Virus record (IMG/VR): IMGVR_UViG_2541047173_000020
From: a virus
Lineage: Duplodnaviria > Heunggongvirae > Uroviricota > Caudoviricetes
Reading direction: 5' to 3' (one strand)
Length of the DNA: 6,003 nucleotides
In this document: in pieces, positions 785-5,686 of the stretch
How the letters are laid out: the number at the start of each line of letters is the position of its first letter
Numbering within the stretch: position 1 is the first letter of the stretch
Notes under the pieces: generated by a model
Seen by the model: only the letters and a program-made list of their open reading frames with translations
What the model was told of the DNA's origin: nothing
The model's database searches: none
Position numbers and translations under genes: made by a program

Positions 785-1531
785 TTACTTCACAACCCTC
801 ATATTGCTGACATTTGGACGCCAGCTATCCCAGTTAAACGTCACCCATCGACCACCGTTCATGGTCATGCGGTCCATAATCCTCTCACCAAGAAGTGTAC
901 TCATTGCGGCATGATTCAGGTTTGTTAACATCCCGACACTGCACAGTGATGCTGTCCGGCGATCAATTATCTGGTGTAATACCACCTGCTCGTTTTTCGT
1001 CTCCCGCTGAACGCCTATTTCATCCAGGACCAGCAAATCAACACTGCAAAGCTCCTGTAAAAATTTTTCCCCGGATTTGCCGTTGTCGTAGCTGTCATGC
1101 AACACGCTCATGACATCAGACACGGTGACGATAATCACGCTGCGCCCCTTCGCCATCAGCCGGTTACCCATCGCCGCTGCAAGGTGATTTTTCCCGGTGC
1201 CGGTTTTACCGCTGAACACAAAATTCGTGCACCCGGTCATCAGTTCGTCAGCTATGGATTTGGCCTGGCTCAGCGCGTATTTTTGCCCGTCGTTCTGCAC
1301 CTGATAATTCGCAAACGAGCATTTGCTGTGCAGAGGCTGGATGCCCGAACGATTCAGGATTTTTTCCACCCGCAACTGGTGATTCTGGCGGTTAATCTCC
1401 TCGCTGCGTTTTCGTCCTTCAGCAAGTTGCCATTCCCGCCACTCCTCCACCGTCCGGTACGGTGGAACCGACGCCTGTGGTGCAAGTCTGCGAATACGTT
1501 CAAGAACCCCGGCTGCCGCAATGTTTTTCAT
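785..1531 (-). CDS. DnaC-like replicative helicase loader (AAA+ ATPase, DnaC/IstB family), phage replication protein P analog
   Basis: 248-aa ORF with P-loop SGKTGTGKNHLAAA and Walker B LLVLDEIG; close resemblance to E. coli DnaC throughout as recalled from memory (NRSGI..., ...LTNLN...LGERIMDRM). ATG at 1529-1531 lies 6 nt after the stop of the upstream replication gene (1538-1540), indicating translational coupling. Confidence 0.9.
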   Translation of the reverse strand: MKNIAAAGVLERIRRLAPQASVPPYRTVEEWREWQLAEGRKRSEEINRQNHQLRVEKILNRSGIQPLHSKCSFANYQVQNDGQKYALSQAKSIADELMTGCTNFVFSGKTGTGKNHLAAAMGNRLMAKGRSVIIVTVSDVMSVLHDSYDNGKSGEKFLQELCSVDLLVLDEIGVQRETKNEQVVLHQIIDRRTASLCSVGMLTNLNHAAMSTLLGERIMDRMTMNGGRWVTFNWDSWRPNVSNMRVVK

Positions 1532-1537
1532 GCCACA

Positions 1538-2629
1538 TCACCCCCTGAATCCCGGCGGAATTTCGGTATCCGGTTCAGAAATATGATTCACACAACGCTG
1601 GTTGTTCGTGCCGCTTACCGGGAGCAACCAGGGGTTTTCAAAATTCCGGTCCGGCCCAAAAAACGTCGTCGCTCGCTGAACAAATTCCGTTCCCGCTTTC
1701 CCGGTCGCCGCCAGGTATCTCGCGTAACGCCTCACACCATCCAGCATGGTCTCTGGTGGCACCCCCTCGCGCAATCTGGCCTTCCAGGCACTGAAAGCGG
1801 ATTTCTTCGGGTTTGCCCCAGCACGCAACGGGTATTCCCGCCAGACCTGTTCGAACACATCCGGATAATCCACTCGTCCCACAGACTGCCCGGTGCTTTC
1901 CGGGACTACCCGATCGGCTTCCCGCTGAATGGCGGAATCGGCTTCAGGCTGCTGCAGTTGGTGTGATTGCTCCGACCCTGCGGTCATCACCTGCTGCACA
2001 GCGCCCGAATCGGCTTCCGGTGTCGTGCCTGCTGGCTGACCAGGATTGACGGTCTGAACATCCCCTGCCTGGTTCGTGGTGTTTTTTTTGCCATGAACCA
2101 TAGTGTTTTTGTCCTGTTCCTGTTCTTTCTCCTGCTCCTGTTCCTGTTCTTGGCTTCGAAGCCCCTTAAAAGCCCCTTCGAAGCCCCTTACCGAATTTCG
2201 GCTATTATTCCGCCTCACATCCAGATGGAAATCCGTTTTATATCTGTCGTAAAACACTGACAGAAAAGCGTTTTCAGGTAATGATGCATACTCATTCCTG
2301 ACACCTGCACAACGGTTATCGCCAGGCTTCAACGTTTCCCCAACCTGCCAGGCTGCCATTTCATGGACCCAGACCATCTCTGCATCATGGTCATAGCTAC
2401 AAAAACCAGCTTCAACAGCCCTTTTAAGCCCCTTTGAAGCCCCTTCCAGACCAAGCCCGGTTTCATGAGCAAGGTATAAAACTGGCAGGTAATACAAACC
2501 CAGCATATTTGCGTGAGGGGATGTCATCAGGTAAAAAGCAACAACTTGCGCTTCTGCACCCGCCTTTCTAAGTTCTCTCCCCGTTTCTCCCAGCCAGAAT
2601 CGCGGAGAAACTTTTGCGTAATCACGCAT
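1538..2629 (-). CDS. Phage replication initiation protein (lambda O analog), 363 aa from the internal ATG; start uncertain (alternative ATG at 2740 gives 400 aa)
   Basis: Long ORF immediately upstream of and coupled to the DnaC-like gene, the standard lambdoid initiator plus helicase-loader pair. ATG at 2627-2629 (MRDYAKVSPRFW...) has GAGGT 5 nt upstream; the track start at 2740 (MSLIKAF...) has no recognisable SD. Contains an acidic (QE)n linker and two clusters of AAGCCCCTT repeats. Family assigned from gene context, not from a recognised signature. Confidence 0.75.
   Translation of the reverse strand: MRDYAKVSPRFWLGETGRELRKAGAEAQVVAFYLMTSPHANMLGLYYLPVLYLAHETGLGLEGASKGLKRAVEAGFCSYDHDAEMVWVHEMAAWQVGETLKPGDNRCAGVRNEYASLPENAFLSVFYDRYKTDFHLDVRRNNSRNSVRGFEGAFKGLRSQEQEQEQEKEQEQDKNTMVHGKKNTTNQAGDVQTVNPGQPAGTTPEADSGAVQQVMTAGSEQSHQLQQPEADSAIQREADRVVPESTGQSVGRVDYPDVFEQVWREYPLRAGANPKKSAFSAWKARLREGVPPETMLDGVRRYARYLAATGKAGTEFVQRATTFFGPDRNFENPWLLPVSGTNNQRCVNHISEPDTEIPPGFRG
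2112..2150. repeat. Imperfect tandem hexamer repeat (TCCTGT-like, about 6-7 copies) inside the replication gene
   Basis: Plus strand tcctgt tcctgt tctttc tcctgc tcctgt tcctgt tcttg; on the coding (minus) strand this encodes QEQEQEQEKEQEQDK. Confidence 0.9.
2159..2189. repeat. Iteron-like direct repeats, cluster A: 3 copies of AAGCCCCTT at 11-bp period
   Basis: AAGCCCCTT at 2159-2167, 2170-2178 and 2181-2189, seen directly in the sequence. Confidence 0.85.
2417..2458. repeat. Iteron-like direct repeats, cluster B: 3-4 copies of AGCCC(C)TT at 10-11-bp period, same orientation as cluster A
   Basis: agccctttt (2417-2425), aagcccctttg (2426-2436), aagccccttcc (2437-2447), plus a partial aagccc at 2453-2458. 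Lies about 258 bp from cluster A with a moderately AT-rich segment between. Confidence 0.8.
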
Positions 2630-2846
2630 GGCTACCTCATCTGGTGCCGAACCTTCCTCCGGATATAATCTGTGGTTCCCAATCGACAGAACCAGAGGAG
2701 GTTCGACATGTATTTTTTGAAAAGCCTTTATCAGGCTCATGTATTAAATGTTGCAGCAACAAACCGCTGGTGTAACAGCCCCGAAATGCTCCCGGATTAC
2801 AGAGCCTGGCTGCGCGCCGAAACATACCTTCGTCTCGACATATTGA

Positions 2847-3356
2847 TTAGCGAACTTCAAAAAGAGACTGCATCCATTCATAACCTTCAGGGTATCGACG
2901 CTGTTCGCATTCTGGTATCGCGCCATAGTGCTCTCTCAATAATTGAAGTGCGTCATCTCTCTTTTTCTGAACTGATTTTCTTGCTTCAACCAGCTCTGGA
3001 ATCAGCGAATATCCCGCCGGAAGTGATCCAATACCCACCTCATGTTGACGAGCAGTTACAAGATGTGCCATACAACCAGCGTGCTGGATTGACTCCCTGC
3101 TCAGAGGCTGAATGGGATCACTCTCTGCTGAAGAAATACCAAGATTTGTATAATCCTCAATAAGCCCGGCACACGCTTCTGCATCAGCCAGCTTTATTCT
3201 GGTTTCCTTGCGCTGTTCTCTGGCTGACAAACGCCAGAGCAGCGCATTAGCTTTATGTATCAACCACTCTGCCAGCTCCACATCAGATAAACCGCCACGC
3301 CAGATGTGCGGACTGTTTTCGTAAACGCTCAGTGTCAATTTTTTGTCATTACTCAT
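2847..3356 (-). CDS. Hypothetical protein, 169 aa, function unknown (extra gene between the CII-like gene and the replication initiator)
   Basis: ATG at 3354-3356 (MSNDKKLTLSVYENSPHIW...) lies 13 nt after the ydaT-like stop (3370-3372), same strand, so likely co-transcribed; the track ORF (2847..3407, 186 aa) begins further upstream inside ydaT. By hand count, first-codon-position G is about 34% here against about 26% for the overlapping plus-strand ORF, favouring this strand. SD is weak. No family recognised. Confidence 0.6.
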   Translation of the reverse strand: MSNDKKLTLSVYENSPHIWRGGLSDVELAEWLIHKANALLWRLSAREQRKETRIKLADAEACAGLIEDYTNLGISSAESDPIQPLSRESIQHAGCMAHLVTARQHEVGIGSLPAGYSLIPELVEARKSVQKKRDDALQLLREHYGAIPECEQRRYPEGYEWMQSLFEVR

Positions 3357-3369
3357 ATTTATTACCCAA

Positions 3370-3795
3370 TTAATGCACAGCCAGAGTGTTTCCTGCCGGG
3401 CCACCACGATTCATCTGATCGAACAGAACGATCGCTGATGCAACGAAATCATCAATATCTTTCACCAGCCGTTCCTTCGTCTCTACCAACTCCCGAAAAT
3501 AAGCGGAACTGTGGCTGCGCATTCGGGCCACCAGCGGAGGCGGCATCGCTTTTTCGATCGCTGGTAACAACGCCTGAATTTTTTTAACCGCATCAGGAGT
3601 GTCTTTCTCCACCCAGCGGAAAATTTTCTGAGTATTGCGAGCCATGGCTTCCGGATGGCTGTCGTCATACAGTTCCGGGAACGTCATTCCCAGCTCGAAA
3701 TACGCTTTGGTAATTTTCGCAGCCGGTACTTTTTCGCCGTCCGGATGCGCCCAGACATTCATCGCCATGCGGATGTGTTCATGCTTGATTTTCAT
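3370..3795 (-). CDS. ydaT: YdaT-like protein (proposed CII functional analog of Rac/CP-933P-type prophages), 141 aa
   Basis: Start MKIKHEHI... matches my recollection of the YdaT family N-terminus; sits directly downstream of the Cro-like gene with an ATGA start/stop overlap (ATG 3793-3795, TGA 3792-3794). GGAG lies 7 nt upstream. Family call is from memory, not a search. Confidence 0.75.
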   Translation of the reverse strand: MKIKHEHIRMAMNVWAHPDGEKVPAAKITKAYFELGMTFPELYDDSHPEAMARNTQKIFRWVEKDTPDAVKKIQALLPAIEKAMPPPLVARMRSHSSAYFRELVETKERLVKDIDDFVASAIVLFDQMNRGGPAGNTLAVH

Positions 3796-4094
3796 GAATC
3801 AACTCCATCAGATAAGCATGCACTACAATCACCTTCAGCATGAACTACATGTGTTTGCCCCAAACGAATGCCGCTCGCATACTCAGGCCAAATAAGCTCC
3901 CAATCATGGGGTCGTAGCTCCGCCCTACTTACTTGGCCTTCCGTCGCAGATTCGATCATAAGGGCGCGGGTTGGAGATATAGCTGTTCGTCCAGACGCCA
4001 TTTGCGATAAGTAAGATGGCGATACACCAAGTCTGGCCGCGAATTTCTTAGCATCACCAACCCTTAATGATTTAATAAACTCTTTTAATGTCAT
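3792..4094 (-). CDS. ydaS: Cro-like HTH regulator (YdaS family), 100 aa
   Basis: N-terminal HTH-like segment AKKFAARLGVSPSYLSQMASGRTAIS; GAGGAAGG SD directly upstream of the ATG (4092-4094); first gene of the minus-strand operon, divergent from the repressor-like gene, which is the classic cro position. Confidence 0.85.
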   Translation of the reverse strand: MTLKEFIKSLRVGDAKKFAARLGVSPSYLSQMASGRTAISPTRALMIESATEGQVSRAELRPHDWELIWPEYASGIRLGQTHVVHAEGDCSACLSDGVDS

Positions 4095-4583: not shown

Positions 4584-4775
4584 ATGAATAGAGCCCTTTC
4601 ACCAATGGTTTCTGAATTTGAAACCATTGAACAAGAAAACAGTTACAACGAATGGCTGCGTGCGAAAGTAGCAACGAGCCTTGCAGATCCGCGCCCAGCA
4701 ATTCCCCATGACGAAGTTGAGCGCAGAATGGCAGAACGCTTTGCTAAGATGCGCAAGGAACGGAGCAAGCAGTAA
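4584..4775 (+). CDS. paaA2: Antitoxin of a ParE-family toxin, PaaA2-like, 63 aa
   Basis: GGAGGA SD at 4575-4580, ATG at 4584; 63-aa charged product (MNRALSPMVSEFETIEQENSYNEWLRAKV...) directly upstream of and almost abutting the ParE-like gene (stop TAA 4773-4775, next ATG 4777). Size and gene order match the PaaA2 antitoxin as I recall it. Confidence 0.85.
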   Translation: MNRALSPMVSEFETIEQENSYNEWLRAKVATSLADPRPAIPHDEVERRMAERFAKMRKERSKQ

Positions 4776-4776
4776 A

Positions 4777-5055
4777 ATGTTACCCGTGTTATGGCTTGAA
4801 AGCGCAGATACCGACCTAGATGATATAACTAGTTATATTGCTCGTTTCGACATAGATGCGGCTGAACGCTTATGGCAGCGATTAAGGGGTTGTGTGCTGC
4901 CGTTATCCGAACATCCGTATTTATACCCACCAAGCGACAGAGTACCTGGCTTGCGTGAGATTGTAGCCCACCCTAACTATATAATTCTATACCGCGTAAC
5001 AACATCAAGCGTTGAAGTAGTAAACGTGATCCACGCAAGACGCCAGTTTCCCTAA
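4777..5055 (+). CDS. parE2: ParE/RelE-superfamily toxin, ParE2-like, 92 aa
   Basis: Product MLPVLWLESADTDLDDITSYIARF...REIVAHPNYIILYRVTTSSVEVVNVIHARRQFP has the size and layout of ParE toxins; starts 1 nt after the antitoxin stop. Confidence 0.85.
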   Translation: MLPVLWLESADTDLDDITSYIARFDIDAAERLWQRLRGCVLPLSEHPYLYPPSDRVPGLREIVAHPNYIILYRVTTSSVEVVNVIHARRQFP

Positions 5056-5485: not shown

Positions 5486-5686
5486 TTACTTCAGAAAGTC
5501 TCTGGTGAGTGCACCGAAGATATTGTCAACGATTTCGTCATCGAACTGCGAGGACTCATCTTCAGTTACAAGGTGACCACAATTTTTGCAGATGGCTCCC
5601 GCGAAACTGTCAGAGCCCTGCGGCTTAAAGGATGTGTCAAAGACTTCGCCACCACATTCTGGGCAAGAAAACTTGATTGTATTCAT
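5486..5686 (-). CDS. Small zinc-ribbon protein, 66 aa from the ATG (two CxxCG knuckles: CPECGG and CKNCGH), function unknown
   Basis: ATG at 5684-5686 with GAGAGGAAA SD about 7 nt upstream; the track start at 5692 is a TTG. Cysteine pairs are spaced in a classic zinc-ribbon pattern and the C-terminus is acidic. An overlapping plus-strand ORF (5351/5408..5707) exists, so strand assignment is uncertain; second-codon-position composition (hand count A 22, T 18, C 14, G 12 of 66) mildly favours this strand. Confidence 0.5.
   Translation of the reverse strand: MNTIKFSCPECGGEVFDTSFKPQGSDSFAGAICKNCGHLVTEDESSQFDDEIVDNIFGALTRDFLK

Follow-up and report, generated by a model that had tools for sequence, protein, structure and literature searches.

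The stretch of DNA analysed here (6,003 nucleotides, hereafter the window) comes from a lambdoid prophage that is integrated beside yccA in E. coli O157:H7, and represents its early region. We consider it probable, with a chance of roughly seven in ten, that this region holds the replication origin of the prophage embedded in the gene of its own initiator, with iterons that are bound by the N-terminal domain of the encoded protein. The putative sites are copies of the 9-mer AAGCCCCTT, arranged in two clusters that both lie within the initiator gene. The comparison showed that these sites are real, that selection acts on them as DNA, that they occur in the initiator gene only and that they travel with the N-domain; as DNA signals they are maintained in hundreds of distantly related phages. 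The proposal of the earlier note, which had read the repeats as iterons of a phage origin inside the initiator gene, is supported by this comparative evidence. By analogy with lambda, they most likely represent the binding sites at which the initiator would start the replication of the phage.

Of 5426 complete E. coli genomes, 469 contain the segment 2100-2640; these are mostly of O157:H7, and the identity is mostly at least 99%. The genes on the minus strand are ordered as a cro/YdaS-like gene, a cII/YdaT-like gene, a small ORF, the initiator gene and the gene of a DnaC-like ATPase, the latter, a putative helicase loader, being located directly downstream of the initiator gene (Table 1). The start codon of the initiator is the ATG at 2629 and not the upstream ATG at 2740, as it is the one used by all homologs and by PGAP. 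Comparison with the PHROG collection connected the protein to the replication-initiator families phrog_1701 (E=1e-148), phrog_3729 and phrog_270 and, weakly, to PHROG 6251 'replisome organizer' (E=1.8e-4). A Pfam or NCBIfam family was not found for it at E<=0.01, and the same held for five of its relatives, for which none appeared at E<=0.1. PGAP lists a 'hypothetical protein', and the relatives in phage records appear as 'replication protein O', 'DNA-binding protein' or 'primosomal protein I'. The identification of the gene as a replication initiator, made in an earlier note on this DNA that was based on the letters and their open reading frames, is upheld by the PHROG replication families, the position in a cro/cII operon and the adjacent DnaC-like loader. 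Moreover, among 71 relatives the next gene downstream encodes a DnaB-like helicase in 23 cases, a loader of the DnaC/IstB type in 19 and lambda P in 2, and a primase-helicase is also found at this place; the initiator gene is always located within a phage replication (helicase or loader) module. Within the window, no DnaA box was present within one mismatch, and scans for promoters and terminators yielded no excess over the shuffled expectation.

Table 1. Features of the replication module (window coordinates unless another record is named)
Feature	Position	Strand	Remarks
cro/YdaS-like gene	3792-4094	-	
cII/YdaT-like gene	3370-3795	-	
Replication initiator gene, 363 aa	1538-2629	-	Predicted winged-helix N-module, disordered acidic linker, C-module
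DnaC-like helicase loader gene	785-1531	-	Pfam IstB_IS21; NCBIfam PRK12377, 509 bits; PHROG 50
Cluster A	2415-2445	+	Exact AAGCCCCTT at 2426-2434 and 2437-2445; degenerate copy at 2415-2423
Cluster B	2159-2189	+	Three exact AAGCCCCTT copies, starts 2159, 2170 and 2181, 11-bp period
Conserved half-site	2148-2156		Coding strand AAGCCAAGA; in 11-bp register past cluster B; includes the Ser159 codon
Lowest-GC segment of the module, candidate unwinding region	2200-2299		GC 0.40; between the clusters, adjoining cluster B
(GAACAG)n hexamer tract	2104-2149		Encodes the QEQEQE acidic linker; purine-rich coding strand; follows cluster B
Inverted repeat	2070-2100		12-pair stem, A8/T8 loop; directly after the linker tract
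Third motif cluster of Acinetobacter relatives	L004 1468-1487 = phage B1251 (L171) 5611-5630		Also in L017, L022, L031, L035, L037 and L054

Three further observations concern the neighbourhood of the module. The ORFs 2708-3163 (+) and 2847-3407 (-) overlap in antisense and each matches a curated family: the former, which is the one annotated by PGAP, belongs to NCBIfam NF033230 'ECs1072 family' (106 bits) and the latter, in the same orientation as the operon, to phrog_8304 (398 bits). It is likely that at most one of these annotations is right or that both strands code. In the immunity region, right after a repressor-like gene, 4584-5055 (+) encodes a RelB antitoxin (NCBIfam NF050103) and a RelE/ParE-family toxin. 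Finally, the genes at the cro and cII positions (3370-4094, minus strand) match Pfam 'YdaS_toxin' and 'YdaT_toxin', and the corresponding PHROGs describe a transcriptional repressor and a CII-like activator; judged from these matches, the toxin names look misleading in such a context.

The exact copies of the 9-mer are all read on the plus strand, and Tandem Repeats Finder reported a period of 11 in both clusters. The arrangement of two clusters of three repeats proposed in the earlier note stands for cluster B, with three exact copies, and has to be amended for cluster A, which has two exact copies and a degenerate one that reads AAGGGCTGT on the coding strand and is one G short; the AAGCCCGG at 2453-2460 that the note had included is out of the 11-bp register. 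The two clusters are indeed separated, where the distance measured in register is 256 bp rather than about 258 bp. The peptides GFEGAFKGL and LEGASKGL ascribed to the repeats are both present in the translation of the minus-strand ORF. Cluster A comprises codons 62-68 (EGASKGL) at the beginning of the predicted recognition helix, and cluster B codes for RGFEGAFKGL in a segment that is predicted to be disordered. In fact, structure prediction placed a helix at aa 60-73 and gave a pLDDT below 50 for aa 144-175. When the window was simulated 2000 times with a first-order Markov model, a triple of exact 9-mers at 11-bp period never arose, and one pair arose in 42 cases; with one mismatch allowed, the window has 6 motif matches, where 1.7 are expected. 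The sites have the form AAG-SSS-CTT, in which the arms are palindromic and the G/C core is asymmetric, so that a symmetric reader would be indifferent to their orientation. In addition, a conserved half-site follows cluster B. Its consensus AGCCAAGA is at least 90% conserved in 72 anchored loci, where the anchor pattern of the alignment fixes part of the consensus. The codon of Ser159, which is independent of that pattern, is AGC in 67 of 67 sequences, out of six possible codons.

To follow the motif beyond the window we used two sets of relatives: seven phages of Escherichia, Shigella, Klebsiella, Acinetobacter and Ralstonia, and 80 loci, one genome per species, with 46-79% protein identity and 36-68% GC, which derive mostly from Gamma- and Betaproteobacteria together with a few Acidobacteriota, Planctomycetota and Ignavibacteriales assemblies. 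A motif pair was defined as two 9-mers at 11-bp spacing with one mismatch allowed. The pair of cluster A is located at gene position +184/+195 in 70 of the 80 species-level relatives, and that of cluster B at about +428 to +462 in 67 of 77. About one in eight loci is without a recognisable pair at one of the clusters, and the most divergent locus (L085) has none at cluster A. The density of the motif is 9.5 per kb within the gene versus 0.23 per kb in the flanks. Exact copies outside the initiator gene are absent from the genomes of Acinetobacter phage B1251 (45 kb) and Escherichia phage Fraca (44 kb), and the same applies to the O157 prophage, of which 18.5 kb were examined. The distance between the clusters is 244, 256 or 267 bp in the relatives, and with this variation a conserved helical phasing between them was rejected. 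One Burkholderiales assembly (L078) contains a second, degraded copy of the initiator gene (975-1060 and 1268-1320), in which cluster A has grown to seven tandem 11-bp copies, the frame is broken and cluster B reads +---. This copy suggests that the repeats are prone to slippage.

The surroundings of the clusters provide further candidate elements of an origin. The moderately AT-rich stretch that the earlier note had described between the clusters was confirmed, with a GC content at its lowest segment (Table 1) that compares with about 0.5-0.6 nearby. This stretch is part of the coding sequence, and its AT-richness is only moderate. In 79 relatives, the part of the gene that immediately precedes cluster B (+360 to +420) has a GC content 0.09-0.11 below the locus mean, the window equivalent of this dip being about 2210-2270; part of the dip may result from the composition of the encoded amino acids. 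The hexamer tract that follows cluster B has the form (GARCAR)n in all relatives, where the choice between GAA and GAG and between CAG and CAA is free. Because these synonymous sites vary freely, the tract is constrained as a peptide or in its composition and not as an exact DNA site, and a role as sequence-specific element was ruled out. The tract is followed by an inverted repeat. Within the 50 nt past the linker, an inverted repeat score of at least 6 was obtained in 44% of 71 relatives versus 11% of the control windows (p=8e-10), and the sequences involved differ by lineage, which suggests that the structure is conserved and not the sequence. The lambda origin also has a palindrome. Viewed by analogy, the combination of sites, low-stability tract and palindrome is the classical lambda layout.

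The alternative that survives best, although we regard it as improbable, is that the initiator binds the sites for the purpose of autoregulation or copy control, for instance as a transcriptional roadblock or an operator within its own gene or close to it, or by handcuffing, and that unwinding and helicase loading take place elsewhere. Plasmid iterons commonly do both jobs, origin and autoregulation, and the AT-rich element beside the sites is weak. Moreover, the Acinetobacter relatives have a third motif cluster 16-38 bp upstream of the start codon of the initiator, a position that is suited to repression. Against this stands that the two complete phage genomes contain no other repeat cluster or motif copy that would mark a separate origin, and that the order of sites, linker tract and palindrome fits that of known origins. 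In any case, the roles in autoregulation and in origin function are not mutually exclusive.

The domain structure of the initiator was informative with respect to the protein that may read the sites. The N-module comprises about aa 1-143 (2201-2629) and the C-module 1540-2109, and for the N-terminal domain a winged-helix fold is predicted. In lambda O, the N-terminal domain sets the origin specificity and the C-terminal domain recruits the loader. The N-terminal part of about 175 residues, with both clusters, is common to phages that have differing C-halves and differing downstream partners. The family of the N-domain has 4083 representatives at E<=1e-3 among 1.84 billion, and in these it always forms the N-terminus of the protein. 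Conversely, the C-module shows 92% nucleotide identity with that of the phages Evi and Tritos, whose N-parts differ, the swap point relative to the Evi-type genes being located at about 2109, after the linker and outside the repeats. No AAGGGGCTT was found in phage Evi. At the equivalent place it has GTCACG four times (L168, 1154-1192) and five times (1414-1462), at a 10-bp period and 260 bp apart, followed by a TDKDTDKD linker. Thus, another N-domain comes with other repeats in front of the same C-domain, which implies that the repeats change with the N-domain, and the layout with two clusters recurs. Homology between the two N-domains was considered and is not supported, as hhalign aligned only the C-terminal tail of the initiator N-domain family and the Evi-type family. 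On basis of its association with the motif, we infer that the N-domain of the initiator is the binder of the sites.

A further observation concerns the Ignavibacteriales assembly (L085). Around 2940-3040 it has a different predicted recognition helix and lacks the motif of cluster A, and in its linker region a variant of the repeat, GAAGGGGTCC, forms two pairs with a spacing of 11 bp, the site variant being AAGGGGTCC. This may reflect a co-variation of the site and its reader.

The tail that is shared with the Evi-type proteins consists of the last 21 codons of the initiator gene (1541-1603, minus strand; NQRCVNHISEPDTEIPPGFRG) and is nearly a copy of residues 159-179 of E. coli DnaT. A sequence search of the PDB with the initiator resulted in a match to this tail only. 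The same DnaT-like tail also ends the otherwise unrelated Evi-type initiators, where it was aligned by hhalign, and its sharing suggests a docking peptide for the helicase-loading machinery. The annotations as 'primosomal protein I' find their explanation in this tail. An identity of the initiator with DnaT was discarded, as the match is restricted to the last 21 residues and the rest of the protein is without one.

Less probable still is that the 9-mers have a different reader, either a host factor or another phage protein, or that they act as junctions for the recombination of N- and C-modules in mosaic initiators. Throughout the Gamma- and Betaproteobacteria, and also in a few other phyla, the 9-mer hardly changes, whereas the iterons of the lambda family diverge with their initiators; a conserved binder other than the initiator is conceivable for that reason. 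In addition, cluster B and the invariant AAGCCAAGAACAGGA tract are located at the boundary between the N- and C-modules, where domains are swapped. Nevertheless, the N-domain is the only gene product that always accompanies the motif, while the neighbouring genes and the C-domains vary. With respect to recombination, cluster A is positioned deep in the N-module, far from the junctions, the Evi-type swap lies past the linker and not within the repeats, and an 11-bp register together with multiplicity is typical of protein-binding arrays.

Whether the motif is maintained as DNA or as peptide could be read from the codons. In an alignment of 69 genes the motif codons are nearly fixed (GAA 63/63, GGG 67/68, GCT 57/66, AAG 63/63, GGG 58/65 and CTT 60/67), and their normalised codon entropy is 0.14 versus 0.82 for 60 other conserved codons (Mann-Whitney p=3e-5). 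For the spacer codon and for those 60 codons, the amino acids of which are equally conserved, the synonymous choice is free. Moreover, as a period of 11 is not divisible by 3, the copies of cluster B fall into all three frames (RGF / EGAF / KGL). The orientation of cluster B provides a second line of evidence. It is '--' or '---' in 47 loci, '++' or '+++' in 6 and mixed in about 13. An inverted cluster B encodes EAPSKPL, QAPSKPL or EAPPKPL in place of EGASKGL, and yet the motif is retained at the DNA level, as are the 11-bp register and the invariant AAGCCAAGA half-site that follows. Read in this way, the codons and the inversions indicate that the repeats are selected as DNA and not as peptide. 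The earlier note had assumed a constraint at both levels, of which the DNA part holds, considering the frozen synonymous sites, and the peptide part does not, considering the flip of cluster B to EAPSKPL. It had also pointed to the conservation of the repeats in homologs as a check; the DNA repeats are kept even where the peptide changes. A peptide that is kept while the DNA repeat is lost had been set beforehand as the refuting outcome, and the reverse was seen. The same motif is kept and its peptide reading is flipped, which constitutes a clean separation of DNA-level from protein-level selection and a textbook case of overlapping codes. The explanation that the repeats are a by-product of a duplicated peptide EGAxKGL and have no cis-acting function, for which the strong conservation of EGASKGL in a predicted helix at cluster A could be put forward, can therefore be dismissed, as the 11-bp period spreads the copies over three frames, the synonymous freezing affects the motif codons only, the peptide at cluster B is replaced in most lineages while the motif stays, and that region is predicted to be disordered.

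The mechanism that we propose for the origin is modelled on that of known systems, from which the identity of the binder, the place of melting and the start of replication in this region are taken by analogy. The N-terminal winged-helix domain would bind the 9-bp pseudo-palindromic AAG-(G/C)3-CTT sites, one helical turn apart, at both clusters. Several protomers would be stacked on one face of the DNA at the two clusters and form an O-some-like complex, which would put stress on the nearby DNA of low stability. The candidates for melting are the low-GC stretch beside cluster B and the A-tract/palindrome just past the acidic-linker tract. The C-module with its DnaT-like tail would then bring in the host DnaB via the phage DnaC-like loader.

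A wider reading can be offered only tentatively. It is possible that the region represents a bipartite, self-referential origin of a very large and hitherto undescribed family of initiators and origins (about 4000 clusters at 50% identity), for which there is no Pfam model. One of the clusters would then be the DNA that encodes the very recognition helix by which it is read, and the other an orientation-indifferent cluster in the linker, such that the two could loop the DNA that codes for the N-domain. If that were true, the 9-mer would predict origins in thousands of prophages, including those of Shigella Stx, O157, Klebsiella and Acinetobacter.

The origin proposed here, if true, would supply a definition at the sequence level of the origin and the initiator sites for a widespread prophage replication module, the current names of which are uninformative ('hypothetical', 'DNA-binding protein') or misleading ('primosomal protein I'). 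The module is also present in the Shigella Stx phages 75/02 and POCJ13 and in prophages of Klebsiella and Acinetobacter. Since toxin production by Stx phages is coupled to their replication (PMC7466680), such a definition would be useful for annotation as well as for Stx-phage biology. We found no paper that describes this motif or origin in the non-subscription literature that was searched. The keyword searches returned background on lambda, Stx phages and SPP1 only, and the listed matches of a full-text search for the motif strings were eukaryotic, viral or plant, with none on phage replication.

Lambda is one of the known systems that come closest to the module. There, the iterons and an AT-rich tract are located in the middle of gene O (PMC7466680), and in lambda and the Stx phages 933W and P27 the repeated initiator sites lie in the coding part of the N-half, beside a low-stability tract (PMC7466680, PMC8508860). 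Two features of a lambda-type organisation were found in the module: repeated sites in the coding sequence of the initiator that are kept as DNA, and a two-module initiator followed by a helicase or loader gene. Like in lambda, the candidate origin is contained in the initiator gene and transcribed with the early rightward operon, and the helicase-loader gene is located directly downstream. Unlike lambda O, the initiator has no Pfam Phage_rep_O match, and a sequence relationship between the two is not detectable. Moreover, the sites are 9 bp long and recur every 11 bp within two clusters that are separated by 256 bp, whereas lambda has 4-6 inverted-repeat iterons of 19 bp in one array. The loader is of the DnaC/IstB type instead of P, the initiator has a DnaT-like tail and the sequence of the sites hardly varies within the family as a whole, in contrast to lambda.

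A similar arrangement is known from Bacillus phage SPP1. At oriL, its replisome organizer gp38 binds direct repeats that lie within its own gene 38 beside an AT-rich unwinding element, and it cooperates with a helicase loader and with a helicase of the DnaB type (PMC6316719). In SPP1 another origin, oriR, is located elsewhere, whereas the motif described here occurs in the initiator gene only, as far as the whole phage genomes that were checked are concerned. With regard to an SPP1-type organizer (Pfam Phage_rep_org_N), the N-domain gave no Pfam match and only the weak match to PHROG 6251, and the hhalign comparison with the 'replisome organizer' family of E. coli was limited to the C-terminal tail. 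The Evi/Tritos-type initiators of E. coli phages, which are named 'phage replisome organizer', share with the window the C-module, the DnaT-like tail, the acidic linker and two repeat clusters about 260 bp apart, and differ in an N-domain that is not detectably homologous and in the GTCACG repeats at 10-bp period. Plasmid iterons are about 17-22 bp in length with a spacing of about 22 bp and are usually found outside the rep gene. The initiator resembles the plasmid Reps (RepA, RepE, pi) in the winged-helix fold, which is predicted here, and is distinguished from them, the staphylococcal RepA_N proteins included, by sites of 9 bp at 11-bp period and by the lack of a Rep_3 or RepA_N match. Judged by this comparison, the function would be that of the lambda/SPP1 arrangement and the mechanism would still be the lambda paradigm, which makes the finding useful rather than surprising. 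What sets the module apart from the known systems, as far as the sequences tell, is the size and pitch of the sites, their division over two clusters, the indifference to orientation and the near-invariance of the site across distant hosts.
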